The notes: a model not told the origin generated them from the letters alone. 64,000 nucleotides of DNA from a virus (IMGVR_UViG_3300042541_001760:53689-117688); one strand, 5' to 3'. Positions 3,632 to 32,898 are shown, counted from the first letter of the stretch. Numbers and translations: made by a program.

Positions 3632-5404
3632 TCATCGTTTGTTACCAAATAACCAACCATAGTCAATATAGTCCTGTCTTGATGCTCCTTGTTGTCTTGG
3701 GTCTTGGTATCTTTGTTGTATATTGGGCGATCCAGGATTAAACGAAATTGACTTGGCTGGAGACTCATCAACGTTAACCGTCCAAGATTCCAACATCGCT
3801 TTTGTATGTTCTGTAACCTTTCCTAATTGACTAAATGAAGATTCACCAACATAAATTGCCATCGCAATGGACATAAGTAAATCATCGTGTTGACCCTTTT
3901 GATGATCAGGTCTACCACTAATATAAACAAAAGTATTCATCTCGTTTAATAGACGATTACTATGAATAATAAAATTATGTCTTACCGCCTCCTCAAACGC
4001 CGCAATTATCTGAACTCTCTTATTATTGAAGTTAATACCCGGTATCTTCTCATTTTGCTTTGGGTCGTATTTCCATTTGTTTTGATAATCAACACCATCA
4101 ACATATAAATCCCTATAACCCAACTCCTGCATTTTTCTAGACGTAGATACTCCCATTCCTCCTGTTATATCAACAACAACAAAACAAGAATACATATTAG
4201 CCCATTTAAAGGCAATATCCGCCATAATGTCTGGTGGTACCTTACCAACATATTCGGCAACTTGTTCTCTCTCATCAAAATCTATAATTTGGAATGTTGA
4301 GTAATCCTCACTATCTCCTCTTGATACGTCAACCCCCATAATGTATTTGTGACCAATTACAGGTTCTTTCCATATCCATAAAGAGTTTGCCATCATCTTA
4401 TTTGTCGGCTCTGAAATGGTATTTTCACGAATCTTGGTAAGTGTCTTTGAATCAAACACGTTATCACCAGATCCAAGGAAGTTACACTCCAATTCCTGAG
4501 AAACTTTTCTCTTGTCGTATTTTAACTTCTTTACCATTCCCTCAAACCAAGAAGAACAAGGTTTAAATCCGTCTTTAAAATAAGGTTTTAGTTTTTCGTG
4601 GTCACCACTATTTGGGTGATAATGTTCTATTTTTACTACTGCATCTGATGGGTATTGTTCCTTATTTAACAAATAGTGAATAATATCATCCGTTTTAACC
4701 AAGAACATATCTTTGGTATATCTTGGATCTCTATACCAAAACATTTCAGATATTTTAAAATCATTAAACCCTCTTAACGCCTGGTCATAGATTTCGTAAT
4801 AAATGGGGTCATACCCGTTTGGTGTTGAAATTACAATAACTTTACCACCCGTAGATAGTGAAGCCATACAGGCTGACCAGAAATCCGCATCCGCTTCAAT
4901 GTAAGCAGCCTCATCAAATATTAGTATTGTTGGTGTATAACCACGTAAAGCATCCTTAGATGTTGCTACCGCCTTTACTTCACAACCATTTGTTAATTTG
5001 TAATGTCTTTGTGAGTTCTTTTCTTTAGCAAATCCAATATCAACCCAAGACGGCCATTGTTCAATAAACCCTCTGACTTTATTAGCCATCTCTTGGGCGG
5101 TATCCAATTTATTGGCGATAATTAGAATCTTCTCAGGTGTTTGTTTTTTCGCGAAGGCTATTTTCTTAGACGCCCAAGCGGCGGTTACGGTGGATACGCC
5201 CGCCTGTCTATACTTTAGGGCGATATTCTCGTTATTATTCTCATAATCGTCAAGTAAGGATATTTGGTCGGGAAACAATTCTAAAGGAACAAATCTAGAT
5301 ACCGTATTATCATACGTCTGTAAATACGTTTTAAGTGCATAAGGGGTATCCCTCATACACTTAACATATTCTATTAAAACTTGTTCCTTTGTTATATTTT
5401 GCAT
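3632..5404 (-). CDS. Terminase large subunit (TerL), T4 gp17-like
   Basis: 590-aa protein. N-terminal ATPase with Walker-B-like ILIFDEAAYIE and the adenine-binding/coupling region VIVISTPNG. C-terminal RNaseH-like nuclease with acidic motifs MGVDVSRGDSEDYSTFQIIDFDE. Adjacent to the portal gene. Confidence 0.9.
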   Translation of the reverse strand: MQNITKEQVLIEYVKCMRDTPYALKTYLQTYDNTVSRFVPLELFPDQISLLDDYENNNENIALKYRQAGVSTVTAAWASKKIAFAKKQTPEKILIIANKLDTAQEMANKVRGFIEQWPSWVDIGFAKEKNSQRHYKLTNGCEVKAVATSKDALRGYTPTILIFDEAAYIEADADFWSACMASLSTGGKVIVISTPNGYDPIYYEIYDQALRGFNDFKISEMFWYRDPRYTKDMFLVKTDDIIHYLLNKEQYPSDAVVKIEHYHPNSGDHEKLKPYFKDGFKPCSSWFEGMVKKLKYDKRKVSQELECNFLGSGDNVFDSKTLTKIRENTISEPTNKMMANSLWIWKEPVIGHKYIMGVDVSRGDSEDYSTFQIIDFDEREQVAEYVGKVPPDIMADIAFKWANMYSCFVVVDITGGMGVSTSRKMQELGYRDLYVDGVDYQNKWKYDPKQNEKIPGINFNNKRVQIIAAFEEAVRHNFIIHSNRLLNEMNTFVYISGRPDHQKGQHDDLLMSIAMAIYVGESSFSQLGKVTEHTKAMLESWTVNVDESPAKSISFNPGSPNIQQRYQDPRQQGASRQDYIDYGWLFGNKR

Positions 5405-6678: not shown

Positions 6679-7470
6679 TTAAATATTAATTCCTAATTCA
6701 CCCCAACTTAACCAAGATGGTACCGATTTTTTACCCGCTTTAGGTGCTGGTTTAACTCCGGGTTTAGGTTTATATGGTGTTGAAGGTGTTTTTGTTTTTT
6801 CCTTTTCTTTTGGTGGTGCGATGGTTGGACTACTTTGTTCTTTAGTTTCCACCTTAGCCTTAGGTGCGGGTTTAACTCCCGGTTTTGGACTATATGGTGT
6901 TGAAGGTTTTTTAGTTGTTTCTCCCGGCTTTACCGTAGGTACTTTTGGTTTAACTGGAGTTTGAGTTTCAGATTCTTTAATCATATCTAAAAATTCTTTT
7001 TTACTAATTTTTGGTTGAATATTTCTTTCCAACAAAGATACGATTTTATTTTCTAAAAACAACTCGGACGGGTCTCTTCCTTCTTTTACGGATTTTTTAA
7101 CATCCATAACACATCTTTCGTATTTCTTCTTGTCTTTTCTACCTACAGTGGAAGTACAAATAGCCCAAGGATTGTATTTTTTGGATTTACCCTTACCCTC
7201 TTTCATTTCACTTTCCTTTGGGGTAGCCATAACTTCCCCTGTTGTGGTTTTAGTAACATTATATCCTTTTGGGTTTGGGGGTAAAGATCCACCACCTGTT
7301 CCTATTTTAAGGGATGTTTTTGTAACGGGGGTAACTTGTTCCTTAGATTCTTCTTTACCCTCGTTCAATTTCTTATAAAGTTTAACCAATTGTGATTCAG
7401 TTAAACTTGCTAATGTTTCGGCTTTAAATCCCATATCCATTAATTTAAATGCTGCGTTATCAGTTTTCAT
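6679..7470 (-). CDS. Lys/Pro-rich repeat protein (possible basic internal/DNA-binding protein)
   Basis: 263 aa. Internal direct repeat STPYSPKPGVKPAPKAKVETKEQ / STPYKPKPGVKPAPKAGKK. Very basic. The N-terminus contains LTE. Confidence 0.55.
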   Translation of the reverse strand: MKTDNAAFKLMDMGFKAETLASLTESQLVKLYKKLNEGKEESKEQVTPVTKTSLKIGTGGGSLPPNPKGYNVTKTTTGEVMATPKESEMKEGKGKSKKYNPWAICTSTVGRKDKKKYERCVMDVKKSVKEGRDPSELFLENKIVSLLERNIQPKISKKEFLDMIKESETQTPVKPKVPTVKPGETTKKPSTPYSPKPGVKPAPKAKVETKEQSSPTIAPPKEKEKTKTPSTPYKPKPGVKPAPKAGKKSVPSWLSWGELGINI

Positions 7471-7870
7471 AAACTACTTTTTTTTCAAATTCTAAAACTA
7501 TATCTCTTTCATATAGTTTTTCTTTTATTGTTTTTTCATCCTCACCAAATCTAAAAACCAATCTTTTTTCAGTTTCAAAATTGGTATCAGAATCTTCGGA
7601 TTCCCAACCCAACGCAATTACATCATCAAGAGAATCTATCATAGAAAAAAAGTCAGAATCCTGAATTAGGGATAACTTAATATCCACACTTTTTAGAGTT
7701 CCGACTTTCTGTATAAATTCTATATCGGGAGCGGATGGATTACCGTTAGACGGTTTTGACTCCCATCCCTCTCCCCATATATCGGTTATTGTATCTGAAA
7801 AGATAAATTCATATATATTATCACCTTTATAATTAGGTCCTAAACCATTTATATAAATTAGATAACTCAT
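7460..7870 (-). CDS. Hypothetical protein
   Basis: 136-aa ORF overlapping both neighbours by 4-11 nt (translational coupling). Confidence 0.5.
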   Translation of the reverse strand: MSYLIYINGLGPNYKGDNIYEFIFSDTITDIWGEGWESKPSNGNPSAPDIEFIQKVGTLKSVDIKLSLIQDSDFFSMIDSLDDVIALGWESEDSDTNFETEKRLVFRFGEDEKTIKEKLYERDIVLEFEKKVVYEN

Positions 7871-9294
7871 AGAATCGCTCCGTCAGGTGTGATTTTAAAT
7901 TGTTTACCATTAACCTCAAAAACCAAATTTCTCTTATTAGTTTTACCGATTAATTCGGCTTTAGAATATCTTGTTATAAATTTCTCAGAAGTTACTTCTT
8001 GGTCAATTGATTCTGACAATCTCTTAACTTCTTTCATTTGTTTAACCTTATGAGTTTTTTTCTCAACAAATTTTCTAACTCCTCTTTCTTCGTTTAATCT
8101 TTTTTCGTTAGGTGATTCTTGAAAATATTTTGATAAAATCTTATCAACTTTTGATTCTGAGAAAATTTCATCAAAAATTTTACCCATTCCATCAGCGTGA
8201 TTATCTTCTAACATATCACCCATTTTACTTTTAATGAGTTCGCTATGTTTATTAGTAACTGCTTTGTTAAAGTCCATTTCCTCCATTGGGGATTTTGGGT
8301 GTCTTCTTCTTTTAGGTTCATCACTAAATCCTAAATCATAATCTCCGTCCATAGTTCCTTCCCATTCTTCGGACATTTCACCTTCAGGTAATTCTTCATC
8401 GCCCATTTCAGGTTCTTCCGGCATATCCATACCCGCATCATCCATTTCAGGTTCTTCCGGTATATCCATATCCTCATCACCCATATCTTCATTATCCTCA
8501 AATCTGGTCATAATCTCCTCAACATCCTCATCGGATAATTGACTTAAATCAAGAGCTGACAATATTGAGTTAATAACATATTTTGTGTCATCAGATGAAA
8601 TTGGTTCTTCACCTTGATTAAGTTTTCTAATTTTTTGACCTAACTTACCTGTTAGTTTTTGGATTGATTTAAAGGTAACCATACCTTCTTCACCTTCAGG
8701 TTCTCCGCCCATATCCATTCCTTCGTCACCCATATCCATACCTTCATCACCCATTTCAGGATCTTCCGGCATACCCATTCCTTCATCACCCATAGATGGG
8801 TCTTCAGGCATATCCATACCTGCGTCAGGCATAGGTGGCATATCAGTTGGTGCGGGTACGGGAGCTGGTGCGGGGGCAGGTGCTGGCATCGGCGGTGCTT
8901 CTACAGGTGCGGGTTTAGGAGTTTTTAATGTGAATTTTTTTTGTTCACCAAATAATGAAATATTTTCTTCATTACCAACCAAAGTATTAACTTCTTTTGT
9001 AATTAAGTTTAATCTCTTTAATGCTTGGGAATAAGAAGGGTAATACTTTCTATTCTGCATTGGTTCAAGATAATCCATATCGGATTCATTAATTGATTTT
9101 TTAATGACATATCCGTTCTTATCTCTTTCAATTTTGTATGTATTACCATCGGCTAACATTATTCCATATTCCGTGGATCTTACTTCATTAACAGGATTTG
9201 GAATGTTTTCCTTATAACGAGAAATTTCAATGATACGGTTTATTTTTTCCATACCTTCTAATCTTTCACTTCCTATTGGTTTTAATTTTCCCAT
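7867..9294 (-). CDS. Acidic Met/Gly/Asp/Glu repeat protein with poly(Pro-Ala) stretch
   Basis: 475 aa. Repeats PEDPEMGDEGMDMGDEGMDMGG and PMPAPAPAPAPVPAP. The same GDMGG/MGDEG repeat style occurs in the portal C-terminal tail. Confidence 0.55.
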   Translation of the reverse strand: MGKLKPIGSERLEGMEKINRIIEISRYKENIPNPVNEVRSTEYGIMLADGNTYKIERDKNGYVIKKSINESDMDYLEPMQNRKYYPSYSQALKRLNLITKEVNTLVGNEENISLFGEQKKFTLKTPKPAPVEAPPMPAPAPAPAPVPAPTDMPPMPDAGMDMPEDPSMGDEGMGMPEDPEMGDEGMDMGDEGMDMGGEPEGEEGMVTFKSIQKLTGKLGQKIRKLNQGEEPISSDDTKYVINSILSALDLSQLSDEDVEEIMTRFEDNEDMGDEDMDIPEEPEMDDAGMDMPEEPEMGDEELPEGEMSEEWEGTMDGDYDLGFSDEPKRRRHPKSPMEEMDFNKAVTNKHSELIKSKMGDMLEDNHADGMGKIFDEIFSESKVDKILSKYFQESPNEKRLNEERGVRKFVEKKTHKVKQMKEVKRLSESIDQEVTSEKFITRYSKAELIGKTNKRNLVFEVNGKQFKITPDGAIL

Positions 9295-9311
9295 TTTATT
9301 TTTTTTTATAT

Positions 9312-9500
9312 TTAATTGTTTAATCCGTTAAATCCCCCAAGAGTAACCGCACTACATTGATTAATAGTACCACCAGTAACGTTTGAGTATACGGGTGTTG
9401 GTGTACCAAAGGTAACTACAGAACCTACGGTATTTCCGGAAGCTGCAACATATCCGGTTATTCTTGTTGTGTAATATGAGGTACAGGCAGTTGTTGGCAT
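9312..9500 (-). CDS. Small Gly/Thr-rich ORF (62 aa), possibly real
   Basis: It fills the gap between two genes. A TATAAATATAT box sits 17 nt upstream of its start (plus coords 9517-9527). Low complexity makes coding uncertain. Confidence 0.3.
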   Translation of the reverse strand: MPTTACTSYYTTRITGYVAASGNTVGSVVTFGTPTPVYSNVTGGTINQCSAVTLGGFNGLNN

Positions 9501-9575
9501 ATCTTTATTTTTTCTTTATAAATATATCAATATTAATAATAGTTTATGTGTAATTAATATTATTATCAAAATGAT

Positions 9576-11903
9576 TTAGATTTTGTTAGCAAATTCCTTA
9601 TAGAAATTTTTAAATATTTCTGAGTGGTCGTAACTATCCTTATCCGTACAAATAACTTTTCCTTTGTAGTTAGAATCGTCTTTATGGGTGCAGTACCATT
9701 TTAATACCTCCCTTGGGACATACCCTGGTGGTTTATTTCCCCAATTTTTCCAATTACATGTCATGTAAGTATTACTACCAAAATCTAAATTAATATATGG
9801 TGATTCTCCTTGTCCCTGACCTTCAGGTGAAGGGTCAATTAAACCCACAAATTTCATATTACTTCTTGGACCTACATAATCCCACATTTTCATACCTCCT
9901 TTAGAAAACCCGGCAATTGAGGTTACGGTCGCATTGTAATTATCTTTCACGTGCTTTATAGCCTCTTCAACAGAGGTTCCCCAATGAGTTATCACTACCA
10001 AAACTTTACCTTTAATTGGGTCAACTCCCGATCCGTAAAAACTTTCATTTAATGAAATCTGACCATTTTGATTAGAATGTAATCCCGCAAATAAAACGTG
10101 TGCTTCACCACCCTTAAAATTATCAGGTTTATAAACTAAGTAATTCTTAGACTTTCTTTTTTCGGTTGGTTGATTTTTATCTCCGATTGTGGATTCTTTA
10201 GATTTTACAGGTTTATTTTCTATCTTATCTATGTAAGGTTCTATATCTTCTGATTGGATATTTTTTTCTTTTAATTTTCCTAATAGAACTTTAACCATTT
10301 CAGGTGTCGCAACTGAATTTACTAAATATTCACCATTATATTTACCAATATATTTTTTATCAATTATAGTTTCAGGGTCAACGGCTACCCCATTTAATAT
10401 TACCTCAAAATGTAAGTGTGGATATGTGGAATTTCCTTTTTTTGATTTTTCATCTTTCTCCCCATTACAACCCCCCTCTTTACCACCGTTACATCCACCG
10501 GTTTTACCAATAATTTGACCTTGTGTTACCGTATCACCTTTTGAAACATCTATTTCATTACAATGACAATATTTTGTTTGATAACCGTCTGAGTGTTGTA
10601 TTAAAATATAACCTCCGCATTTACCAACACCAAAGGATGACCCTACCACTTTTCCGTCGGCGGGTGATTTTATCGTAGTATTTCTATCACTACGTAAATC
10701 AACACCATTATGTGGTCTACCTCCACGAGGTCCAAACTTTGAAATCACCACTAATGTACCATCCAATGGAGGTAAAATTTTTGATTGATTGTCAGTTTCA
10801 TCAGTTGATTCAGCTTTTTCAACTGCTTCTATATTCTCCTTCTTGAATTTTTCAACTTGTCCAGAGGTTTCAGGTCCATATAAACCATCAACACCGTGAT
10901 TTGGTAACTTATAACCTAATAGTTCCAACCCTATTTGTATCGACTCAACATTTTCTTGAAATGAATACTCACCTCTTTTTTGTTGGGATACAGGTTCTTG
11001 GATTGAATCTAAAGTTTTATAGAATTCGGAAACATCGTCACTAACTATGTCTGCTTTCTTTGGGTTATCAACCTTAACTTCACCTTCTTTATTTTTTTTA
11101 CCCGAAAATAAATTAGATAAAAAATCTCTTATTTTTCCTTTATTTTTTTCTTGTTCACCAATTAATTTTTGCTCCAATGACAATTCCCTATCGACCTTTT
11201 CTTTTTCAAAGTTGAATAGTTTTTCAATATACCCATTTCGTCTAAGGTATTTAAATACCAAATTTTCGTAGGATAATTCTCCACCACCCTCTAATCCGGA
11301 TTGTCTATATTTTTTAAGTTTATCTTTGAAACCGCCTAATAACTTTAAAGCAGCCTCTAAGTCCTTACCTTTAGCCGAATCAATAACCTCATCAATTTTT
11401 TCAGTCCATTGGTCAACTTTTGACATAAGAACTTCTTTATCGGCTTTAAAATCACCTTTTTTAGGTGGTGTTAACCATTTGTTATATATAACGGAATATA
11501 CCCCTGTTGAGAAGTGGGGTTCATTACTGTCCTGTAGATATAACTCAACGTCATAACCATAAATCTTTATATTATGGTCAGAGTTAAATAATGTTTTTTT
11601 TAATTTAAAAAGTTCTTTATAAAGGTCTAATTGTTCTTTTGGGAATTGTTCAAAATCCACAATTACGTGTAAATCAAAATCAGAGTATTTTGACCAATTA
11701 TAGTTAGCCATAGAACCTGTCATATGAACATCGGACACGATAATATCAATACCTAAAAATTCTATGAATTCATAAGCAATTTCTAATAACTTTTCTCTAA
11801 TTTCAGGTTTAAGTTTTGTCGACTTATTGTCCTTAACCCACACCTTTGGATTTAGTCCTTTTTTTAAATCAAAGCTTGATAAAATTTCACTATCCTTTTT
11901 CAT
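9576..11903 (-). CDS. Multi-domain cell-wall hydrolase: N-terminal minimal nucleotidyltransferase fold, PG-binding domain, M23 peptidase, C-terminal alpha/beta-hydrolase (GXSXG)
   Basis: 775 aa. Pol-beta-type nucleotidyltransferase signature TGSMANYNWSKYSDFDLHV (GS-x10-DxD). PG_binding_1-like IQIGLELLGYKLPNHGVDGLYGPETSGQVEKFKKEN. M23 motifs HNGVDL (HxxxD) and HLHFEV (HxH). C-terminal GFSKGG nucleophile elbow. Confidence 0.85.
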   Translation of the reverse strand: MKKDSEILSSFDLKKGLNPKVWVKDNKSTKLKPEIREKLLEIAYEFIEFLGIDIIVSDVHMTGSMANYNWSKYSDFDLHVIVDFEQFPKEQLDLYKELFKLKKTLFNSDHNIKIYGYDVELYLQDSNEPHFSTGVYSVIYNKWLTPPKKGDFKADKEVLMSKVDQWTEKIDEVIDSAKGKDLEAALKLLGGFKDKLKKYRQSGLEGGGELSYENLVFKYLRRNGYIEKLFNFEKEKVDRELSLEQKLIGEQEKNKGKIRDFLSNLFSGKKNKEGEVKVDNPKKADIVSDDVSEFYKTLDSIQEPVSQQKRGEYSFQENVESIQIGLELLGYKLPNHGVDGLYGPETSGQVEKFKKENIEAVEKAESTDETDNQSKILPPLDGTLVVISKFGPRGGRPHNGVDLRSDRNTTIKSPADGKVVGSSFGVGKCGGYILIQHSDGYQTKYCHCNEIDVSKGDTVTQGQIIGKTGGCNGGKEGGCNGEKDEKSKKGNSTYPHLHFEVILNGVAVDPETIIDKKYIGKYNGEYLVNSVATPEMVKVLLGKLKEKNIQSEDIEPYIDKIENKPVKSKESTIGDKNQPTEKRKSKNYLVYKPDNFKGGEAHVLFAGLHSNQNGQISLNESFYGSGVDPIKGKVLVVITHWGTSVEEAIKHVKDNYNATVTSIAGFSKGGMKMWDYVGPRSNMKFVGLIDPSPEGQGQGESPYINLDFGSNTYMTCNWKNWGNKPPGYVPREVLKWYCTHKDDSNYKGKVICTDKDSYDHSEIFKNFYKEFANKI

Positions 11904-11935: not shown

Positions 11936-12178
11936 TTAAAGTTTTTTATATGGGTGAACTTTTGCAATTTTTGAACTGAAGAATTTACCTTGAGATTCCG
12001 ACATTCTAAATTGAGTATATAATTGATGGGGTACATCTTGATACTCATATTTTAAACCATTATTAAACTCAACTAATAGATCCTTTGTTTCGGTATCATA
12101 TTCTGTGTGTTTAATATTTGACGAAGTAATATCATTAATTATTTTTGTTCCTATAATTTCTTCTTTTGTGATTGCCAT
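11936..12178 (-). CDS. KTSC-domain protein
   Basis: 80 aa. LLVEFNNGLKYEYQDVPHQLYTQFRMSESQGKFFSSKIA matches the KTSC domain pattern (F.nG..Y.Y..VP...Y......S.G.yF...I). Confidence 0.6.
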   Translation of the reverse strand: MAITKEEIIGTKIINDITSSNIKHTEYDTETKDLLVEFNNGLKYEYQDVPHQLYTQFRMSESQGKFFSSKIAKVHPYKKL

Positions 12179-12210: not shown

Positions 12211-12242
12211 AAAAAGAAAACCCCTCTTTTGGGGAGGGGTTA
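12211..12242 (-). terminator. Rho-independent terminator (minus strand)
   Basis: CCCCTC-TTTT-GGGGAGGGG hairpin. On the minus strand it is followed by TTTTCTTTTT. Lies between two minus-strand genes. Confidence 0.55.
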
Positions 12243-12269: not shown

Positions 12270-12659
12270 TTAAGACCAAGAAGCGTCTCCAATATCACCT
12301 TGATACTTTCTAAATTCTCTATCGTGGTCAAATCCAGATTCACCACCACTCTTTTGTGGTCTTCTAGTTTTGATTGTTAAAGGTTTTCCTGTTTTTTCTT
12401 TATATGTGTTAAACATTGCCTTACCCATATCACCACCTAAAGCTCTTCTTTTTGGATGTTTTTCGTGAAATGATTCATAGTCATTAAATTCCTCTGAATC
12501 AAAATCATCATCATTTATATCATCGTCAGAGAATTGGTCGGTATCCATATCAACCCATTTTTCATCACCACCAAATGAACCATATCTTTCACCTTCGCTG
12601 ATTATTCTTTTTACTAACCTAACTAAATCACTTTCTGTTAATCTTACAATTTTTTTCAT
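12270..12659 (-). CDS. Hypothetical protein with leader type b (MKKIVRLTESDLVRLVKRIISEGE)
   Basis: 129 aa. The N-terminal 25 residues are near-identical in pattern to the N-terminus of ORF 51238-51753 (MKVIKLTESDIKKIVKRVISEEE). Confidence 0.5.
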   Translation of the reverse strand: MKKIVRLTESDLVRLVKRIISEGERYGSFGGDEKWVDMDTDQFSDDDINDDDFDSEEFNDYESFHEKHPKRRALGGDMGKAMFNTYKEKTGKPLTIKTRRPQKSGGESGFDHDREFRKYQGDIGDASWS

Positions 12660-12705: not shown

Positions 12706-13077
12706 TTAAAGCAAAGATATCTTTTTCTTTCTCTCAATCTTTTTTTCATTAGGGATAAACACGCTTAATAACCCATCCTCAATAGTTGCTTCAAGTTTAG
12801 AGGTGTCAATATTTAATCCCAAATCATAAGAGAAGTGAACACTCTTAGTTTTATCACCACTTGATGATTTAATTACACGACTACCATCAATGGTTAAAAT
12901 TGTGTCATCAACATCAACTTTTAAATTTGACTTATTAAAGCCAGGGACGCTGAATACATAATAAGCCCCATCTTCGGTTTTATGAACATCATAGTCACTG
13001 ACATAATTTCTTCTGAATTTAGCATCAGTAAAGTCGTTTAGGATTGTGTCGAAAATTGATAAATTTCCTGTTTTCAT
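12706..13077 (-). CDS. Small heat-shock protein, Hsp20/alpha-crystallin family
   Basis: 123 aa. ACD-like core YYVFSVPGFNKSNLKVDVDDTILTIDG...ATIEDGLLSVFIPNEKK. Confidence 0.75.
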   Translation of the reverse strand: MKTGNLSIFDTILNDFTDAKFRRNYVSDYDVHKTEDGAYYVFSVPGFNKSNLKVDVDDTILTIDGSRVIKSSSGDKTKSVHFSYDLGLNIDTSKLEATIEDGLLSVFIPNEKKIERKKKISLL

Positions 13078-13206
13078 AGTTTTTTAAATTTTTATGTTTA
13101 TTATTTGATTGTGAATTATTCAACTGGTGTGCCAAATAAAATATACGACATTTTGTCAGTTAGTATATGACAATTTGTCACTATTGAACTATTGAGTATA
13201 ATTTCA

Positions 13207-13216
13207 TATATTTATT
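13207..13216 (+). promoter_or_regulatory. Putative Bacteroidetes-type -7 promoter box (TATATTTATT) for the ClpC-like gene
   Basis: TAnnTTT(A/G) motif 14 nt upstream of ATG 13231. The same box recurs before most genes in the window. Confidence 0.35.
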
Positions 13217-13230
13217 AAAAAAATAAGATT

Positions 13231-15273
13231 ATGAATGAGATAATGGACGGTGATGGACCTTCATCAAGAAAAAAAGGCGACAACGATAGTGGTACTCCTG
13301 TACTGGATAACTTCAGTAAAGATTTAAATAAATTGGCTGAGGAAGGTAAATTAGATTCAGTTATTGGTAGAGATAAAGAGATATTAAGAATTGCTCAGAT
13401 ATTATCAAGAAGAAAGAAAAATAATCCTATTATTATTGGAGAACCGGGTTGTGGTAAGACCGCAATTGTTGAGGGATTGGCAATGAAAATCCAACAAGGT
13501 GAATGTCCGAGAAATTTAGCGGATAAGAGAATTGTCCTGTTAGATATGACATCCATTGTTGCGGGAACAAAATACAGAGGTCAGTTTGAGGAAAGAATGA
13601 AAGTGATTATTGAAGAATTACAATCACATCCCAACATTATTATCTTCATAGATGAGATTCACACCATTGTAGGTGCAGGTAATTCATCAGGATCATTGGA
13701 CGCTTCAAACATATTCAAACCAGCATTGGCAAGAGGTGAGATTCAATGTATCGGAGCTACAACACTTGATGAATACCGTAAAAACTTTGAGAAAGACGGA
13801 GCGTTGGAAAGAAGATTCCAAAAAGTGGTGGTTGACCCTTCAACGAAAGAAGAAACTCTACAAATTCTAAAAAACTCAAAAGACAAATACGAGAGTTACC
13901 ATAAAGTTATTTTTAGTGACGAAGTATTAATCACTTGTGTTGATTTGGCGGACAGATATATTACCGATAGAGAGTTTCCCGATAAGGCTTTTGATATTAT
14001 AGATGAAGTTGGGGCAAGAAGTCAGGTGGATATTAAAATGCCTGAAGTTATTGAGAAATTGAAATTGGACGCAATTGATATCAAACAACAAAAGATTGAT
14101 GTTGTAAAGAAACAGAATTACGAACAAGCGGCAGAACTTAGAGATAAGGAGAAAAAAATTCTGAATAAACTTCACGTAGAAAAAATGAAGTTTGAAGAAG
14201 AAATGAATATCAATAAGAAAGAAGTTGAGATTGAATTGGTTTATGAAGTTGTATCCAATATGACAAAAATTCCTGTTGGAAAACTTAACATTGACGATTC
14301 AAAATCATTGGTTGATTTGGAGGTTAATATCGGATCGAAAGTTATTGGTCAATCTGAAGCGGTTTCAAAAATATCAAAAGCAATTAGAAGAAATAGATTA
14401 GGTATTAAAGACCCAAATAGACCCATAGGATCGTTTATCTTCTTAGGATCCACAGGTGTGGGTAAAACACACTTAGCCAAGCAATTGGCGAAAGAGATAT
14501 TCGGTAGTGAAGATTCTTTAATTAGAGTTGATATGTCCGAATATCAAGAAAAACACTCAATCTCTCGTTTAATCGGATCTCCTCCGGGATATGTTGGTTA
14601 TGATGAAGGTGGTCAATTAACTGAACAAGTTAAAAACAAACCATACTCCGTTATTTTATTTGATGAAATTGAAAAGGCAAATAAAGACATATTCTCAACT
14701 TTACTACAGGTATTGGATGATGGTCACCTTACAGATGGATTGGGAAGAAAAATCAATTTCAAAAATTGTCTTATCATTATGACATCAAATATTGGTGTTA
14801 AAAAATTACAAGATTTTGGGGCTGGTGTTGGATTCCAAACTAAGTCCTATGTTGAAGAAGAACAAAAACGAGACATCCTTAAAAAGGAACTTCAAAAATT
14901 CTTCGCACCTGAATTCCTAAACAGAATTGATGATGTGATAATCTTTAACACCCTAAAACAAGAACAAATTAACGAAATCGTTAAGATTGAACTTAATAAG
15001 TTATCATCAAGATTGACTAAAATCAAATACCAATTCAAATTTGAATCTTCGGTAACTGATATGATATCAAAAGTTGGTTTTGATGAAATGTATGGGGCTA
15101 GACCTTTAAAGAGGGCTATCCAAGATAAAATTGAGGATTATATTTCCGAGGAAGTTCTTAGAGGTGAACTTAAAACCGAAACACCTTATGTGGTTACGGC
15201 AGAGAATGACGTTATTATTATAACGGAAGAGAAAAAAGGAAAGAAGGGTAAAACAAAAAAGGAGGTTGAATAA
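13231..15273 (+). CDS. ClpC/ClpB-like double AAA+ chaperone ATPase lacking the N-domain
   Basis: 680 aa. D1 Walker A GEPGCGKTAIVEGLA and Walker B IIFIDEIHTIVGAG. Short UVR-like middle motif KQNYEQAAELRDKEKKI. D2 FLGSTGVGKTHLAKQLA...RVDMSEYQEKHSISRLIGSPPGYVGYDEGGQLTE...LFDEIEKA...LQVLDDGHLTDGLGR. Confidence 0.9.
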   Translation: MNEIMDGDGPSSRKKGDNDSGTPVLDNFSKDLNKLAEEGKLDSVIGRDKEILRIAQILSRRKKNNPIIIGEPGCGKTAIVEGLAMKIQQGECPRNLADKRIVLLDMTSIVAGTKYRGQFEERMKVIIEELQSHPNIIIFIDEIHTIVGAGNSSGSLDASNIFKPALARGEIQCIGATTLDEYRKNFEKDGALERRFQKVVVDPSTKEETLQILKNSKDKYESYHKVIFSDEVLITCVDLADRYITDREFPDKAFDIIDEVGARSQVDIKMPEVIEKLKLDAIDIKQQKIDVVKKQNYEQAAELRDKEKKILNKLHVEKMKFEEEMNINKKEVEIELVYEVVSNMTKIPVGKLNIDDSKSLVDLEVNIGSKVIGQSEAVSKISKAIRRNRLGIKDPNRPIGSFIFLGSTGVGKTHLAKQLAKEIFGSEDSLIRVDMSEYQEKHSISRLIGSPPGYVGYDEGGQLTEQVKNKPYSVILFDEIEKANKDIFSTLLQVLDDGHLTDGLGRKINFKNCLIIMTSNIGVKKLQDFGAGVGFQTKSYVEEEQKRDILKKELQKFFAPEFLNRIDDVIIFNTLKQEQINEIVKIELNKLSSRLTKIKYQFKFESSVTDMISKVGFDEMYGARPLKRAIQDKIEDYISEEVLRGELKTETPYVVTAENDVIIITEEKKGKKGKTKKEVE

Positions 15274-15287
15274 CCTCCTTTTTTTAA
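15255..15287. terminator. Bidirectional rho-independent terminator between convergent genes
   Basis: GGAGGTT-GAAT-AACCTCC hairpin flanked by an A-run upstream and TTTTTTT downstream. Confidence 0.55.
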
Positions 15288-16117
15288 AATGGACTATAAA
15301 TTTTATTAGGTTTCTCCTCTTTAAATTGGTGTTTGGTGTAACCCAATGATTCTATCATTTTTTTACCAACTTTGATACCATTGTAGACATCCTCAACCAC
15401 CACATATTCATTTGCGGTGTGGTAATCGTAGTACCCAATGGAGATATTGATACAAGAAAAATCAAAAGATTCTTTAAGAGCGTAAACATCGGTATAAGGG
15501 TGTGAGAAATATTTTAGTTTATCAGGAAAACTTTCAGTTAGAACTTTATCACATTCTTTAAAAAAGTCAGTCCGTCTGTCAAATAATGTTGTTCCCCAAC
15601 ATCTTTCAGTAACCATCCAATTTTCGGGGGCGTCGAACTGAATTGCGTAACCAACATTTGTAAAGAATGATTTGTCGGCTTTACGAGACCCGTGACATCC
15701 TGTTTCTTCAGATACAAAGAACGCCGCCTTTAAGTTGGGTAACTCTTTTAGTAATTCTAAACAAGCATAGACACCACACTTGTCATCACCTCCAATACCT
15801 GTAGGGTTTCCTTCGTTATTATACGCTTTTAGGGATAACTTAATTTCACCTTGAGCGTTTTCAAGTTGTTCTTCAACGACATTGATTGAGTCCATATTAT
15901 GAACCGTATCAGTGTGTGATACAACACAAGGGAACATAAACCCATTAGGTAAATCACCGGTTTGTTTGGTGGCATAAACATTAAGATGTTCATCCACCGT
16001 ATGGTCAATGTTGTTTTCCGTTAACCAATCAATAAGAAATTGAACCATCTGTTCTTCCTTATAAGTTTTACTTGGTACTGACAATACGTCTTTTAGTAAT
16101 TGATAATTTCTTTCCAT
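15284..16117 (-). CDS. M20/M28/M42-type metallopeptidase
   Basis: 277 aa. Metal-ligand motifs HTDTV, GGDDKCG and the catalytic Glu-Glu SEETGCHGS. Confidence 0.55.
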   Translation of the reverse strand: MERNYQLLKDVLSVPSKTYKEEQMVQFLIDWLTENNIDHTVDEHLNVYATKQTGDLPNGFMFPCVVSHTDTVHNMDSINVVEEQLENAQGEIKLSLKAYNNEGNPTGIGGDDKCGVYACLELLKELPNLKAAFFVSEETGCHGSRKADKSFFTNVGYAIQFDAPENWMVTERCWGTTLFDRRTDFFKECDKVLTESFPDKLKYFSHPYTDVYALKESFDFSCINISIGYYDYHTANEYVVVEDVYNGIKVGKKMIESLGYTKHQFKEEKPNKIYSPF

Positions 16118-18503: not shown

Positions 18504-18845
18504 TTAATAAAGATTAGTTATCCAGTTATATCTTGACTCAATCTTAGGTAAGTATCTATCTAATAAAAAATTATATATTTCATCAGACGGAAATTCGTCT
18601 TGACCCCAATTTGATAAATCTCCGTGATACTCGTCAATAATACCATTTATTATACGTCTTTTAAAATCATCAAATTCCATCCTATTACCATCTCTAAGTT
18701 CTCTTAAAAAAATATCAGTAACGTAATTTAAATTATCTAGTATGTCACTATCTAATGAACTAATATCAACTCTTCTACGTAGAAAAGAAGATTCATTAAT
18801 CCCCATCACTTCCTGTATCCTCTGTATATTTTCTTGTAGATTCAT
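18504..18845 (-). CDS. Leader-family protein (MNLQENIQRIQEVMG N-terminus)
   Basis: 113 aa. Conserved N-terminal 15-mer shared with 20289, 20605, 21462 and 22235. A TATAAATAT box abuts the start codon. Confidence 0.6.
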   Translation of the reverse strand: MNLQENIQRIQEVMGINESSFLRRRVDISSLDSDILDNLNYVTDIFLRELRDGNRMEFDDFKRRIINGIIDEYHGDLSNWGQDEFPSDEIYNFLLDRYLPKIESRYNWITNLY

Positions 18846-18860: not shown

Positions 18861-19580
18861 TCACACATTGATAATTTTCCATTTCCCTTTGAAGTCCTCA
18901 ACCAAACAAGTTGAATTCTCGCAAAAGTCGCCTGAGTTCATATAATCATCGGTTAATTTTGGGTAATGGATATGTCCACATACGGTAACATCATACCCCT
19001 TTTCTTTTGTTAGTGATTTTGCGTTATCTTCAAAATCAGATACAAAATTAATTACACCTTTAACGCTTTGTTTTACCACATTAGCCAATGAATGGTATGG
19101 TAAATTAAACCATCTCCTTATGTAGTTATATAGGGTGTTGAATCTAATAACAAAATCATACGACCACCCACCGATAACCGCCAACCATCTGGCTTCCATA
19201 ATAACAAAATCCAATACATCCCCGTGATAACAATAATAACTACGACCATCGGCTCCGATATGGACATATTTTCTTACAATCTCTATATTATTTAATGTGA
19301 ATGGTATGAACTCCTTTAGAAAGTCATCGTGATTTCCTCTAATATAAATTACCTTAGTTCCCTTCTCACTTCTTTTCATAAACTTACGAAATATCTTGGA
19401 GCAGTTGTTATTCCATTTTCCCCCACTTTTTAACGCCCATCCATCAATAATATCACCATTTAAAATTAATGTTTCAGATTCGTTCTCTTCCAAAAACTTT
19501 ATAATTTTATTGGTTTGTGATTGTCTTGAACCAAGATGTAGATCACTCATTATTATCGTTCTCCACTTTTTCATTTCCAA
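18861..19580 (-). CDS. Calcineurin-like metallophosphoesterase, LpxH-like (UDP-2,3-diacylglucosamine diphosphatase family)
   Basis: 239 aa. Motifs SDLHLG, LNGDIIDGW, IRGNHDDFL and YHGDVLDF parallel the LpxH motifs DLHL / GDLFEAWIGDD / HGNRDFL / HGDTLCTDD. Confidence 0.65.
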   Translation of the reverse strand: MEMKKWRTIIMSDLHLGSRQSQTNKIIKFLEENESETLILNGDIIDGWALKSGGKWNNNCSKIFRKFMKRSEKGTKVIYIRGNHDDFLKEFIPFTLNNIEIVRKYVHIGADGRSYYCYHGDVLDFVIMEARWLAVIGGWSYDFVIRFNTLYNYIRRWFNLPYHSLANVVKQSVKGVINFVSDFEDNAKSLTKEKGYDVTVCGHIHYPKLTDDYMNSGDFCENSTCLVEDFKGKWKIINV

Positions 19581-20317
19581 TATCCTTTATCGTTTTTGAA
19601 GTATGATTTGTTATTGTGGTTGAAGAATGAGTTAATCATTAATTTTATCATATACATAACACCTTTATTTTTAAATCTTCTTGGTGGTGTATATACTATA
19701 TTATTTATTCTACCGAACTTATTAGGTTTAATTTGTTTTGATAAAATATAATCCTCGGCGACTTTTACGTCCTCATCAAACCCCCCTATTAACTTAAATG
19801 TTTCGGATCTAATCAACATAAAACCACCAAGACAAAATGGTGTAATCCATTTTGAAAGTGATTGTATTACATCAAATGACTTGTATATGTAATTGTATTC
19901 ACCATTGTCAGTCCTGAACTTCGTGGTTACCAAATCTAAGTTATTTTTATGTATTTTTTTTATTGATTGTGTTAGTATTTTTGCATCCAATAGAAACACA
20001 TCAGAATCCATAAATAATACATAGGGGGTTTTTACTATTTTGAATCCTTTATTTCTGGCTATCCCCGGTAATCCACCATCAATTATTATTAAATCAAATA
20101 GGTCTTTATTATGTGTTAATCTATTAATTAATGATTCATAGGTAACCGAATCGTTTGATGAATCACAAACTATAACATTTACTCCGGTTACGTTCCTCTG
20201 ATAATTTAATAAATCTAATGTTTTTAAAATAACATCTTTTTCATTTTTACAAGGAATTACTATTGTGATTAAATTTTTTAAATCCATATTAATCAATTCC
20301 CAATTTTTCCTTAACAT
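19571..20317 (-). CDS. Glycosyltransferase family 2
   Basis: 248 aa. ITIVIPCKNE...VIVCDSSNDS...IIIDGGLPGIARNKG...LFMDSDVFL (GT-A fold with DXD). Overlaps the downstream gene by 10 nt. Confidence 0.75.
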   Translation of the reverse strand: MLRKNWELINMDLKNLITIVIPCKNEKDVILKTLDLLNYQRNVTGVNVIVCDSSNDSVTYESLINRLTHNKDLFDLIIIDGGLPGIARNKGFKIVKTPYVLFMDSDVFLLDAKILTQSIKKIHKNNLDLVTTKFRTDNGEYNYIYKSFDVIQSLSKWITPFCLGGFMLIRSETFKLIGGFDEDVKVAEDYILSKQIKPNKFGRINNIVYTPPRRFKNKGVMYMIKLMINSFFNHNNKSYFKNDKGYWK

Positions 20318-20594
20318 ATTTAATCATAGGTTTTTCATACATTAAATATGAATCCCAATATTGTTGTTCCGTTCCTGTATCATTAATATCGCTAAAATTT
20401 TTTGTGGCTATGAATTGTCTTACCGTATCATAAATTGCGGTGCTCAAACTTTCACCCTCCTCTATTTGGTCTTTAATATCTTTAATCAGGTCATCTAGTT
20501 CGTCAATATCAAATCTCCTCTTGAACCACGGACTAAGATTTTCATTAAGACCCATCATTTCCTGTATCCTTTGTATGTTTTCTTGTAGATTCAT
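20289..20594 (-). CDS. Leader-family protein (MNLQENIQRIQEMMG)
   Basis: 101 aa. Conserved leader followed by an acidic body. Confidence 0.55.
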   Translation of the reverse strand: MNLQENIQRIQEMMGLNENLSPWFKRRFDIDELDDLIKDIKDQIEEGESLSTAIYDTVRQFIATKNFSDINDTGTEQQYWDSYLMYEKPMIKYVKEKLGID

Positions 20595-20604: not shown

Positions 20605-21459
20605 CTAAGCAAAATTATTTAATGATGAAGAATCATTATTTTTATTCATAGCAACAGTATTCATTAAATCAATAAAATTATTCATCTTTTCTTGGTTAGT
20701 TCCTTTTAAAGATTTAAAAATGTCTTGATAATGTACGTTTTTTAATATAGTTGGATTTTTAATCATTTTATTATAATCATCTTTAGTAAATTGTTTTTTC
20801 CCCGCATCGTATATACCTTGTTGATTTAGTAAATACCTAATTGGTTGGATTCTATTAATAAATTCACTTGGGGTTGATTCATAATCAAAAACCTTATCAC
20901 CGATTTTATAATTGGGGTATTTTTTATCACCTCCTTGGGTATACTTATAAATTTTTTCTTTTGTTGATTGTGGTATTCTTGAACCTCCGTCATCAACCAG
21001 GTGACCAAATTCATGAGCCGGTATAGTTTCATATCCGGTAACTGGATTCCAATTTTTTGGATTATACTCTTTTTCAAAATACACATGACCTTTCTTATCA
21101 TAACCTTTTGCATCAGGAGTCCATTTATTTTTTTTCCATTTTTTATCTAAATAATCATAATACTCACCCTCATAATTTTTAGGTATCATTAACCCTGATA
21201 CATATCCCGGTTCTTTTGAGATAGCTCTTACGAAGTGTGTTTGGTCTTTAACATTATCCAAATTTTTTAATCTCTCTTTTCTTTCTTTTTCTATAAAATC
21301 TTGAGGTTTATTAGGAAATTCTTTTTTTAATCTTTCTAAGTACATTGTCGAATTTAAATATGATTTCCACCACTGTAGTTGTTTGTCGAATTCACTGGTG
21401 GTTTGCTCATTTAAGCCCATTACTTCTTTAATTCTTTGTATGTTTTCTTGTAGGTTCAT
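20605..21459 (-). CDS. Leader-family protein with HExxH zinc-metallopeptidase motif
   Basis: 284 aa. MNLQENIQRIKEVMG leader. C-terminal AHEFGHLVDDGG (HExxH). Confidence 0.6.
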   Translation of the reverse strand: MNLQENIQRIKEVMGLNEQTTSEFDKQLQWWKSYLNSTMYLERLKKEFPNKPQDFIEKERKERLKNLDNVKDQTHFVRAISKEPGYVSGLMIPKNYEGEYYDYLDKKWKKNKWTPDAKGYDKKGHVYFEKEYNPKNWNPVTGYETIPAHEFGHLVDDGGSRIPQSTKEKIYKYTQGGDKKYPNYKIGDKVFDYESTPSEFINRIQPIRYLLNQQGIYDAGKKQFTKDDYNKMIKNPTILKNVHYQDIFKSLKGTNQEKMNNFIDLMNTVAMNKNNDSSSLNNFA

Positions 21460-21461: not shown

Positions 21462-22238
21462 CTATTTTTTAGGAGTTGGGATTTTAGTGTCTTTTATAAA
21501 TTTTCCATACGCATTTTTATATGACTTTTGCGTTTCATCATTTACGTTTTTGGTGTATTGCCAATTCCAATATAAATCTTTGTTTGGTTTGAATCCATAA
21601 AATTTATGAACTTCCTTTTGGGTTGCAGTTACATTCTCACCATTCCAATTCTGACCGACACAAATAAAACCTGTCTCAATATCTTTAATAATGTTTGATT
21701 CACCCAATGTTGTATGTCTATTTTCTAACCAATTCAATCTCTCAATTAAGTTTTGGTAATACATATTGGTCTGACCCCATCTTATAGAACTGAAAAATAA
21801 AACAACATCCGATTCAAATAACTCTTTGGATATCTTCCATAATTCGTCTGAGGGTTCATTTATATTAACCCAACATCTATGATCACCTGACGGGTTTTTA
21901 TCTTTGTCTTTAAGTTTGGCTTTTAATAATCCACAAGAGTTTCCGTCTTTTCTTGATACATTACCTTCACAGGGTAAAATTTTAAGTTCTGGTACATCTA
22001 TCAATACTGACTTATCACCTAATTGGTCTTTTAAATACATCGCAATCATTTTTGATTTTGGTATATCAATATTCTTATCATCCCAATTATATCTGTTTGA
22101 GCAACTTAATAATAAAACTTTTTTTTTCTTTTTTAGAATATCTAATGTTTTCTCAATTGATTTCCATGCGTCCGATTGAACCATTTCTTCCGAAATCATC
22201 ATCTCTCTTATTCTATCTATATTTTCTTGTAGGTTCAT
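21462..22238 (-). CDS. Leader-family protein (MNLQENIDRIREMM), possibly flavodoxin-like body
   Basis: 258 aa. Leader present. The body (VLLLSCSNRYNWDD...DVVLFFSSIRWGQTN) is of unknown fold. Confidence 0.55.
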   Translation of the reverse strand: MNLQENIDRIREMMISEEMVQSDAWKSIEKTLDILKKKKKVLLLSCSNRYNWDDKNIDIPKSKMIAMYLKDQLGDKSVLIDVPELKILPCEGNVSRKDGNSCGLLKAKLKDKDKNPSGDHRCWVNINEPSDELWKISKELFESDVVLFFSSIRWGQTNMYYQNLIERLNWLENRHTTLGESNIIKDIETGFICVGQNWNGENVTATQKEVHKFYGFKPNKDLYWNWQYTKNVNDETQKSYKNAYGKFIKDTKIPTPKK

Positions 22239-24390: not shown

Positions 24391-24702
24391 TCCAATAAAC
24401 CCAAGTGTAATGTTAGTGACACATCACTCTCGATACGTTCGACCACGAGACGGATATTTTAATCGGTTAACTAAAACCAATGATTCTGTCCTTTTTGTTA
24501 ACTCTAAAGGACAACGTGAGTAACATATCATCTCACGTATTAAAGAGTAACGATTTTTTTGTTTTACGGGTATGGGGTGTAAAACTATTTAAACCATCGA
24601 AAAAAATAAAAGACCCCACAGAATAAATTTATTTAATCTTTTAATTTAACCTCCTAAAGAGACGGCTTTATTCTATATTCCGTCAAAAAAACGAGTCACT
24701 TG

Positions 24703-24777
24703 TTGCGGGAGCAGGAATCGAACCTGCGTGGTTGAGCTTATGAGACTCAGCTGGATCCGTCTCCAGTCTACCCCGCC
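24703..24777 (-). tRNA. tRNA-Met (CAT), initiator-like acceptor stem
   Basis: Reverse complement GGCGGGG-TA...CTCATAA...GCAGG-TTCGATT-CCTGC-TCCCGCA-A. The acceptor closely resembles E. coli tRNA-fMet (CGCGGGG/CCCCGCAA), including a 1:72 mismatch. Anticodon loop CTCATAA. The D-arm is irregular, so the call needs tRNAscan. Confidence 0.55.
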
Positions 24778-25794
24778 TTGGCTTACGTTGAGATTACACG
24801 TTTTAGTAGAAATCTTTGATGGGATTATTGTTTCCCCACGTATCCACCATCTTTTGAATGGTAATTTCCAGTGATGGTCTTTTAGGTGTACCACTCCTTG
24901 AATTTCTAACTACTCTCCTACTAATCCGTTCTCTTCAAACTTGCGGTCTGATTAGGTCTTCGACAACCTAGAGATTTTTCATAAGAATACATTCTGACTT
25001 GCGGTCTTCGTGTGCAATGGACATCCCATTACTATGTAATCACCTTTCGTTAGAAACTGATAGACACTTTTGCTTTCTTTTTAAATTTTTAGTAAAAAAA
25101 TCGAGTTATGTGTTGTGGATGTATCAAAGTAGTGGTCTACCGTAAGCTTCGTCGTCTTTTGAACAACAAAATACTAAACTACTTCGTGAAGTGTCCCCAC
25201 CTCCATACTTTAAGATAACTTCGTAACAAGATTTTGGTAAATCTTTGATAAGGACAGTAGCGACACCACTCGTTCTCTATCTTACCTTTCGGTTTTAAGT
25301 TATCTTTCATATTGGAACACGCAATTGTATCGTTGGAGCGATAGTTCTCGCAATATTCCTATGGGTTATTCTTATTGGTGTTCCCACCTCAACTTGACAA
25401 TCCACATTGCCTTGTCACCCAACCACTTTCTCTAAAGCGTCGCCCTCAATACTGAAGGTCAGGTGATATCCCACTTGTGTACTCAAGTTCAGTTACCTGA
25501 ACCGCAAACTCACTTACACTTGTGAATCCACTTTATCCTACTTTCGTAGTTTATTTAACGACCATACACGGCCGACTATCTTTATGTTTTACCGAAATAA
25601 AACAATGGATAATATTTTTTATGTCAAAGAACAATAATCATTTTTACTAATTAGAACTATGCTACTGACGGCTTAATTAGGGGTTCTCACCGCTCTAAAA
25701 TGTCAGGTTCACACCAGACCTCCTTTTCTAATTGTTTGACAAAGGTAGTAAATAAATTTCATTTGTCAAGCAATTTTTTAATTTTTTTTCGTCA

Positions 25795-25845
25795 CCCCCA
25801 CCCTATTAAACCTAAACTTTATAACTTAAATACTGATAGGGTGGG
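25795..25845. other. Perfect 11-bp stem-loop (CCCCACCCTAT ... ATAGGGTGGGG) with 29-nt loop
   Basis: Seen directly in the sequence at the edge of the ORF-free region. Preceded by a T-run. Confidence 0.5.
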
Positions 25846-26087
25846 GTAACTCTCAAATCTTTTACAAATGTAGGAAGAATTTTCGTTACTTCCAAATTTA
25901 TTTTATGATTTTTTATGATATTTTTAAAGAACTGATTTGAATCAAATGTCTGTCTCAAATCCTCTACAAATGTAGTAATAAGTTTTTGAATTACCAAACC
26001 ATAACCGGAAATTATTTTTAGAATTGACTTTATGGTTTATTACATCTATATTCTGGTACGTTAATAAACCATTAAAACTAATTAAAA

Positions 26088-26270: not shown

Positions 26271-26358
26271 CCATATACTATCTAAGAGATTAGCCCTGTT
26301 CTTTTTAAGGATGGGGTTTTTTATTTACATAATGTAGTATTTATTTAAAACACGAATT

Positions 26359-27431: not shown

Positions 27432-27489
27432 AGCTATTTACTTTTACAAATAAATATCTACAATTACTCGTTTTTTTTAGTTTTGTAAG

Positions 27490-29057: not shown

Positions 29058-29070
29058 ATTTTTTATTTAG

Positions 29071-31532: not shown

Positions 31533-31573
31533 TTTTAAACACCCCCAACATTAAGTCAGGGGTGTTGATTTTT

Positions 31574-32895: not shown

Positions 32896-32898
32896 ATT

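Follow-up and report, generated by a model that had tools for sequence, protein, structure and literature searches.

We analysed a 64,000-nucleotide stretch of viral DNA (IMGVR_UViG_3300042541_001760:53689-117688, hereafter the window), which derives from a large, uncultured, tailed jumbo phage of Bacteroidota, and focused on its clp gene (13231-15273, plus strand). Judged by its domains and alignments, the 680-residue product of this gene is an orthologue of ClpC that has no N-domain, but retains both ATPase rings, the short middle domain (M-domain) and the loop by which ClpC docks onto ClpP. By analogy with ClpC proteins truncated in the laboratory, we propose that the phage protein acts as a derepressed, adaptor-independent unfoldase feeding host ClpP, a reading to which we give an even chance. 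The analysis covered 64 kb, the whole genome being at least 261 kb long. Counts for the lineage refer to 80 related IMG/VR loci, and the motif and tree comparisons to the 79 lineage copies of Clp.

Architecture of the phage ClpC

Domain searches with Pfam identified AAA (D1), AAA_lid_9, UVR (5.8e-5, residues 284-310), AAA_2 (D2) and ClpB_D2-small in the ATPase, with Clp_N missing. Residues 1-24 are a remnant of the linker between the N-domain and D1. They precede D1 (~25-265, with Walker A at 70-77 and a KYR pore loop at 111-122), an M-domain of the ClpC type (~266-335, with the tip residues Y297, R304 and D305) and D2 (~366-650). The best relatives of solved structure are the ClpC proteins of S. 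aureus and B. subtilis, which align in one continuous stretch at 716 bits; ClpB and Hsp104 align only as two pieces split at the M-domain, and the NCBIfam ClpB score of 822 bits lies under the 1232-bit cut-off. This pattern indicates that the M-domain is of the short ClpC type and not of the long ClpB type that recruits DnaK. The UVR match and the continuous ClpC alignment bear out the original prediction, made from the sequence of the window, of a ClpC-type double-ring ATPase with a short UVR-like middle motif. The 80 closest cellular homologues are Bacteroidota ClpC proteins at a uniform 55-60% identity, three of which lie on contigs of metagenome-assembled genomes binned to other phyla.

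The alignments and reading frames indicate that the N-domain is truly absent. Residue 12-15 of the phage protein aligns to residue 150-153 of S. aureus and B. subtilis ClpC. When the open reading frame (ORF) was rebuilt for each locus, 79 complete bacterial genes encoded 840-878 residues, of which 158-194 are N-terminal to the phage start, and 83 phage genes encoded 650-719 residues, most of them with in-frame stops a few codons upstream. In the window only four in-frame codons are open before the start codon (ATG), beyond which lies a gene on the opposite strand. Using Bacteroidota N-domains in tblastn and profile searches, we found no Clp_N in the six frames of the window or of the phage loci. 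The protein thus starts directly at D1, as had been claimed, and the idea that an N-domain was overlooked through a mis-called start fails on the upstream stops and on the lack of Clp_N either upstream or in trans. Since the ATPase begins at D1, its regulation and substrate selection must differ from those of host ClpC, and the expectation of a distinct substrate or adaptor specificity, which is central to the original prediction, holds.

We also considered that the short gene might be an artefact, namely a mis-called start, a truncated pseudogene, a mis-binned host contig or a recent host paralogue. Many of the database matches of clp that are labelled as phage are indeed short bacterial contaminant records. 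However, the upstream stops and the opposite-strand neighbour exclude a longer ORF, and the gene sits between the portal and terminase genes and the tRNA genes, on contigs that reach 330 kb. Orthologues of ~680 residues, at 70-100% identity and with all motifs conserved, occur on hundreds of viral contigs. Identity to cellular ClpC reaches only 55-60%, and this uniform distance together with the separate clade of the phage sequences argues that clp is not a recent acquisition from the host, an origin that the original prediction had singled out as damaging to it. We give an artefact next to no chance.

Across the 79 lineage copies, both rings have kept the Walker A and B motifs, the KYR and GYVG pore loops, the arginine fingers and the sensor motifs, and the conservation of each domain in the phage clade equals that of the bacterial set. 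By this comparison the phage gene is under purifying selection as strong as that on its bacterial orthologues. The aromatic residue at the M-domain's tip (Y297 here, the equivalent of S. aureus F436) is Y or F in 79/79 copies, and the R-D pair that follows it is kept. At 30 positions the lineage clade and the bacteria are fixed for different residues. The phage protein therefore has D1, the M-domain and D2 in common with Bacteroidota ClpC, including the motifs, the aromatic tip and the FG-x-G-[VI]-GF loop, but it lacks the double-repeat Clp_N of 158-194 residues and differs further in these 30 fixed substitutions and in having an operator of its own (see below).

Docking to ClpP and the role of the enzyme

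The ClpP-docking tripeptide of the D2 P-loop, V533-G534-F535, is encoded at 14827-14835 (plus strand) in the context FGAGVGFQ. The original prediction had pointed to this loop as a feature to look for, and the outcome was positive: [VI]GF is present in 79/79 lineage copies, and also in 3/3 copies from huge phages (described below) and in the bacterial orthologues. Mutation of VGF to GGR abolishes docking to ClpP (PMC13125188), and an engineered ΔN ClpC1 caps ClpP1P2 via its LGF loops (PMC11005422).

Searches of the window and of the 80 related loci turned up no ClpP, whether the query was E. coli ClpP (whose sequence was checked at 100% identity) or a Bacteroidota-phage ClpP, which agrees with the earlier statement that the window encodes none. 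One ClpP-like tblastn match (40687-40839, plus strand, E = 0.024) was rejected as junk frames inside a solid 729-residue ORF on the minus strand. A scan of viral contigs with Lak-phage ClpP returned 55 loci, none of them of the window's lineage. Host ClpP is taken as the partner because no ClpP is encoded in the 64 kb. Some relatives do encode their own ClpP, as the supplement of Chen et al. 2022 (PMC9723584) lists two bS21-phage scaffolds on which a ClpP family lies 25-43 genes away from the ClpC family; within the 64 of at least 261 kb, the window has no ClpP at a distance syntenic with that of the bS21-phage ClpP. An unrelated phage on a 184-kb viral contig (IMGVR_UViG_3300033068_001847) carries at 7066-10678, all on one strand, an N-less ClpC-like gene (655 residues, P-loop IGY), a 212-residue ORF, a thioredoxin and a ClpP (228 residues). 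From its gene content this array is a putative self-contained phage ClpCP module, which would give indirect support to the delivery of substrates to ClpP.

These observations also bear on a different role, that of a ClpP-independent chaperone or disaggregase that, alone or together with the Hsp20 holdase, remodels phage proteins for the production or assembly of large virions. Apart from the lack of a detectable ClpP in the window, such a role is favoured by the position of the Hsp20 gene, which here and at 12 other loci lies divergent beside clp with a common regulatory region, and by the location of the cluster 8 kb from the terminase and portal genes. In a jumbo-phage survey, virion-assembly or translocase roles are likewise proposed for phage ClpA and ClpX (PMC7824862). 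However, a chaperone working without ClpP would be expected to lose the docking tripeptide, which ClpB lacks, and the tripeptide is kept in every lineage and huge-phage copy (79/79 and 3/3). Moreover, the M-domain is of the short ClpC type and not of the DnaK-recruiting ClpB type, 67 of the 80 loci have no Hsp20, and the unrelated phage mentioned above arrays an N-less ClpC with ClpP. On balance we consider a purely chaperone-like role unlikely.

The proposal that the phage enzyme feeds ClpP builds on what is known of the N-domain. In S. aureus ClpC, this domain stabilises the inactive resting state, serves as the dock for adaptors as well as for phospho-arginine substrates, and screens the substrates that enter (Jenne et al. 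2025, PMC12583610). Once it is removed, the protein forms planar hexamers, binds ClpP constitutively, hydrolyses ATP at a higher rate and is less selective (PMC12583610). Given these three roles of the N-domain in characterised ClpC, where every known adaptor docks on it, the N-less phage enzyme should escape host control and take broader or different substrates. We suggest that hexamers of the phage ClpC would cap ClpP, that the partner in the window's phage would be host ClpP, and that ClpP proteolysis would in this way be redirected to serve the phage. More speculatively, the exopeptidase encoded next to clp could trim the peptide products of ClpP to amino acids, and Hsp20, which where present shares the operator region with clp, could hold unfolded proteins. 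As the M-domain's tip is retained, M-domain contacts, or some phage partner acting there, may still gate the activity.

Several points weigh against this proposal. The regulatory model is carried over from Firmicutes and Actinobacteria, and Bacteroidota ClpC is biochemically uncharacterised. In S. aureus, ΔN-ClpC alone is not proteolytically active, because its M-domain contacts lead to obstructive assemblies; it became proteolytic, and the most toxic of the mutants, only once these contacts were also broken by F436A (PMC12583610). As the phage protein retains Y297 and the R-D pair, it need not be constitutively active in any simple way. A phage ClpP, or a partner acting in trans, may lie outside the 64-kb window. 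The adjacency of clp and the peptidase gene may just reflect regional collinearity, and an insertion hotspot splits the pair in 36 of the 73 convergent loci. Finally, with a neighbour-joining tree and bacteria chosen by similarity, the count of independent captures described below is provisional.

The S. aureus data could also be read in another way, in which the phage protein is a decoy or competitor that occupies host ClpP or co-assembles with host ClpC, and so shuts down ClpCP and ClpXP functions (stress responses, turnover of phage proteins, Clp-dependent defences) without productive degradation. The S. aureus ΔN-ClpC indeed binds ClpP and forms unproductive assemblies when the M-domain tip is intact (PMC12583610), as it is in the phage protein, and phages are known to tamper with ClpCP, SPO1 Gp53 being an example (PMC6873191). 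A pure decoy, however, needs no working Walker B, pore loops, arginine fingers or sensors, and both rings of the phage protein conserve all of these as tightly as those of bacteria do. Mixed hexamers with host ClpC are in addition uncertain at 55-60% identity and with 30 fixed lineage-specific substitutions. We regard a decoy as quite improbable.

Compared with the engineered S. aureus ΔN-ClpC (PMC12583610) and Streptomyces ΔN-ClpC1 (PDB 8XON/8XOO, PMC11005422), the phage protein has the same architecture, starts likewise in the linker and keeps the M-domain and the P-loop. Those constructs are laboratory truncations, whereas the phage gene is a natural and long-lived family; and proteolysis by the S. 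aureus construct depended on a further mutation in the M-domain, to which no change in the phage protein corresponds. Another natural Hsp100 protein without an N-domain is ClpB80 (ClpB-ΔN), which E. coli and M. tuberculosis make from an internal start codon and which is hexameric and active (PMC6168691). It differs from the phage protein in having a long M-domain and no ClpP loop and in being made beside the full-length form, whereas the phage short form is the only product and of the ClpC type. SPO1 Gp53 is an adaptor-like phage protein that redirects B. subtilis ClpCP (PMC6873191). Both phages would thus intervene in the host ClpC/ClpP system, SPO1 with a small protein that binds host ClpC and the phage studied here by supplying the unfoldase.

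Origin and recurrence of the truncation

The 79 lineage sequences group into a single clade in a neighbour-joining tree, for which the bacterial sample was picked by similarity to the query. N-less copies of 701 and 707 residues were also found in two deposited huge phages (~640 kb), and these lie at a distance of 0.20 from bacterial ClpC versus 0.38 from the lineage clade; a third huge-phage copy, of 657 residues, stands apart in the tree. At the 30 positions that separate the lineage clade from the bacteria, the huge-phage copies have the bacterial residue. In addition, about 10 of the 150 nearest cluster representatives at 50% identity, from a library without genomic context, are 660-676 residues long and aligned from their own N-terminus. 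Loss of the N-domain looks recurrent in phage-borne ClpC on these comparisons, and as the huge-phage copies are nearer to bacterial ClpC, capture and N-domain loss probably happened more than once. PDB 8XON, which we had taken for a natural N-less ClpC of 696 residues, was discarded because it is really an engineered truncation.

A more far-reaching interpretation is that large phages of Bacteroidota captured clpC repeatedly and dropped the N-domain each time. Domain loss would then be an adaptive way of obtaining a deregulated unfoldase, which would hijack host ClpP and possibly liquidate the host proteome, with the adjacent lid-less exopeptidase finishing the peptides to amino acids. We put this forward tentatively and rate it well short of even. 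If it is true, these genes would parallel in nature the ClpC-deregulating antibiotics and the laboratory ΔN mutants. The N-domain holds ClpC inactive, and removing or drugging it leads to uncontrolled proteolysis and bacterial death, an effect on which cyclomarin-type antibiotics and BacPROTACs are based. If the truncation has evolved repeatedly, the phage genes would be natural ΔN-ClpC variants that combine an intact M-domain tip with activity in the absence of the N-domain, which the S. aureus construct does not achieve, and would be useful for dissecting ClpC regulation. They would also provide the first access to the biology of ClpC in Bacteroidota, for which no adaptor is known, and would mean that host proteolysis is manipulated by a widespread group of freshwater jumbo phages via their own unfoldase and not via a small adaptor mimic.

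At the level of annotation, both the gene family and the phage lineage are already known. ClpP, ClpS, ClpA and ClpX have been reported in jumbo phages (PMC7824862), and the bS21-phage paper mentions a 'Clp protease / chaperone ATPase' (PMC9723584). The supplement of the latter lists the same Clp family, with Flavobacteriales ClpC as best hits, so that the gene has previously been annotated as 'ClpC / chaperone ATPase'. Neither the lack of the N-domain nor the retention of the ClpP loop, the apparently recurrent truncation, the operator or the lid-less peptidase is described in those parts of the literature on these phages that were searched.

Regulation, gene neighbourhood and phage background

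Two copies of a palindromic operator, GACA-N3-TGTC, lie in the 153-bp intergenic region between Hsp20 and clp, a distal one at 13147-13158 (GACATTTTGTCA) and a proximal one at 13169-13180 (GACAATTTGTCA). The right half of the proximal copy is the -35 hexamer of the best promoter match (TTGTCA-16-TATAAT, 13175-13202, plus strand), which agrees with a sigma-70-like consensus at 11/12 positions, while Bacteroidota primary sigma factors use another consensus. In the lineage as a whole, 68 sites fall in the 17.4 kb directly upstream of clp versus 8 in the other 959 kb, and these few are mostly within ORFs. The operator is present in 48/80 loci and paired in 19, and the spacings of the paired sites cluster at 20-22, 29-32 and 41-43 bp, that is, at whole helical turns. 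A general control element of host clpC was considered and rejected, as the regions upstream of bacterial clpC contain 3 sites in 23.7 kb, in only 2/79 loci. Two identical GACAATTTGTC sites of the same palindrome occur 33 bp apart, at -285 and -252 of clpC, in Leadbetterella sp. DM7. The conserved operator provides an entry point to the regulation of clp.

Downstream, where only 10 bp separate clp from the convergent peptidase gene, there is a symmetric candidate for a bidirectional intrinsic terminator (A6-GGAGGTT-GAAT-AACCTCC-T7, 15255-15284, dG -15.6 kcal/mol, z = -3.28), which overlaps the last clp codons and the peptidase stop codon. Among the tight convergent clp-peptidase junctions of relatives, 25/30 fold with z < -2. 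The original prediction had the cluster bounded by strong bidirectional terminators; one such element does exist, between clp and the peptidase gene, but a consensus scan placed none at either edge. A terminator-like hairpin at 12219-12241 (minus strand), with an 8-bp stem of which five pairs are G-C, followed by TTCTTTTTTA, lies downstream of orf129 and 465 nt outside the left edge of the cluster, and probably forms the 3' end of a transcript that spans Hsp20 and orf129. Since clp is the sole plus-strand gene in the first 22 kb of the window, it should be monocistronic, and the operator and terminator together suggest a separately regulated monocistronic unit.

The three genes that the original prediction grouped as a proteostasis cluster are real, and the coordinates given for Hsp20 (12706-13077, minus strand), the Clp ATPase and the peptidase (15284-16117, minus strand) proved exact. 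The peptidase gene accompanies clp in 78/80 loci. As a conserved unit, however, the trio did not hold, because Hsp20 is found in only 13/80 loci, always at the same spot and divergent from clp. Its distribution marks Hsp20 as a likely accessory insertion. The other genes of the region are the M23 protein (74 of 80 loci), KTSC (76) and orf454 (65), and the M23 protein, KTSC, clp, the peptidase gene and orf454 are collinear across the lineage, so that the adjacency of clp and the peptidase gene is weak evidence of functional coupling. Both genes could be placed in 79 loci (L084 included), being convergent in 73 and co-directional, with gaps of 40-62 nt, in 6. The convergent pairs are separated by no more than 60 nt in 33 cases and by an insertion of more than 400 nt in 36. 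The junction behaves as an insertion hotspot, and in one locus (L004, 8040-9609) the gap is 732 nt versus 10 nt here, with a Clp protein identical to that of the window.

The peptidase (277 residues) had been called an M20/M28-type metallopeptidase. Pfam gave marginal passes for M20 (26.4 bits) and M42 (24.3 bits), and its peptidase nature was confirmed by PHROG 4191 'peptidase' (7.8e-39) and by a fold search. The AlphaFold model (pLDDT 82.8, pTM 0.87) matched M42 TET aminopeptidases in Foldseek at E ~1e-10 and PepT 3GB0 with a TM score of 0.72. H68, D70, D111, E137, E138, D162 and H233 are invariant in 27 sequences and are candidate metal ligands or catalytic residues; the motifs H-x-D, DDK-G, EE-G, D and H-T-x-N-E align to PepT 3GB0. 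In that alignment the PepT chain jumps from residue 169 to 334 while the query advances only from 164 to 221, which skips a lid of ~165 residues. The family is uniformly 268-281 residues long versus 330-410 in the solved relatives. The predicted structure thus points to a lid-less di-metal exopeptidase of clan MH, similar to PepT (M20B) and M42 enzymes. It has the fold of the catalytic domain and the motifs in common with Peptidase T and the M42 TET enzymes, but both the lid/dimerisation domain of PepT (~165 residues) and the PDZ-like domain of M42 are gone. TET peptidases act downstream of the proteasome, and by analogy it is plausible that the phage enzyme trims ClpP products.

The 123-residue small heat-shock protein (Hsp20/alpha-crystallin) was recognised by PF00011 at 3e-12 over residues 33-120, as the original prediction had it, and by phrog_432. 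It is very divergent from deposited phage Hsp20s and ends in KKISLL, of which I-S-L resembles the I/V-x-I/V anchoring motif but is non-canonical. Downstream of it, orf129 (12270-12659, minus strand) encodes an acidic protein with no family match that is variable and present in 6/80 loci. An 80-residue KTSC-domain protein, recognised by Pfam (11936-12178, minus strand), is in most relatives directly divergent to clp across the operator region. It is adjoined in 74/80 loci by the M23 protein, which here (9576-11903, minus strand) has 775 residues with an N-terminal nucleotidyltransferase-like domain (phrog_36119), a peptidoglycan-binding region, an M23 peptidase and a long C-terminal region.

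The tailed-phage nature of the window is marked by a portal gene (1706-3568) and a large terminase gene (3632-5404). Its GC content is ~32%, it had no nucleotide matches to deposited phages by megablast, and the terminase is only ~27% identical to that of any cultured or isolate phage. Contigs with close homologues reach 330,803 bp. The order of KTSC, M23/NTP_transf_2, terminase and portal is the same as in the supplementary tables of Chen et al. 2022 (PMC9723584), who describe freshwater bS21 phages of up to 331 kb that infect Bacteroidota. That paper also counts 'an AAA ATPase' among the highly transcribed genes, without specifying which of the ATPases it is, and a moraphage paper (PMC12619734) names a ClpA-like ATPase and a 'putative peptidase' among the core genes. 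No bS21 gene was found in the window, where its expected position is at or beyond the edge; an ORF at 128-343, considered as a candidate, has no Pfam match. An 858-residue ORF (35054-37630, plus strand) has a CHU_C signal for type IX secretion at its C-terminus, together with PKD domains and SprB repeats. By its domains it would be a phage-encoded, Bacteroidota-style secreted or gliding-motility adhesin, and as this combination is specific to Bacteroidota, it serves as a marker of the host phylum.

Several other genes of the window deserve mention. At 24702-33662 the minus strand carries seven tRNA genes (two Met, Tyr, Cys, Thr, Arg and Glu) with small ORFs interspersed. Four otherwise unrelated minus-strand ORFs (18504-18845, 20289-20594, 20605-21459 and 21462-22238) begin with a near-identical 15-residue leader, MNLQENIQRI[QKR]E[VM]MG, and the 729-residue ORF at 40161-42350 (minus strand) has a related motif, LNEELNRIREIMG. 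Because the leader ends in I-x-E, the consensus for cleavage by T4-type prohead proteases, it may be a capsid-targeting sequence or the propeptide of packaged (ejected) proteins. A 475-residue ORF (7867-9294, minus strand) that separates the terminase block from the M23 protein matched no family; it contains a long proline/alanine tract and acidic repeats of the unit M-G-D-E-G-M-D-M, and may encode an internal or scaffold-like protein. Auxiliary genes on the minus strand (27797-28858, 31574-32401, 54924-55970 and 18861-20317) comprise functions of a T4-type RNA ligase, SPFH/Band 7, IMPDH/GMP-reductase-like, calcineurin-like metallophosphoesterase and family 2 glycosyltransferase type.

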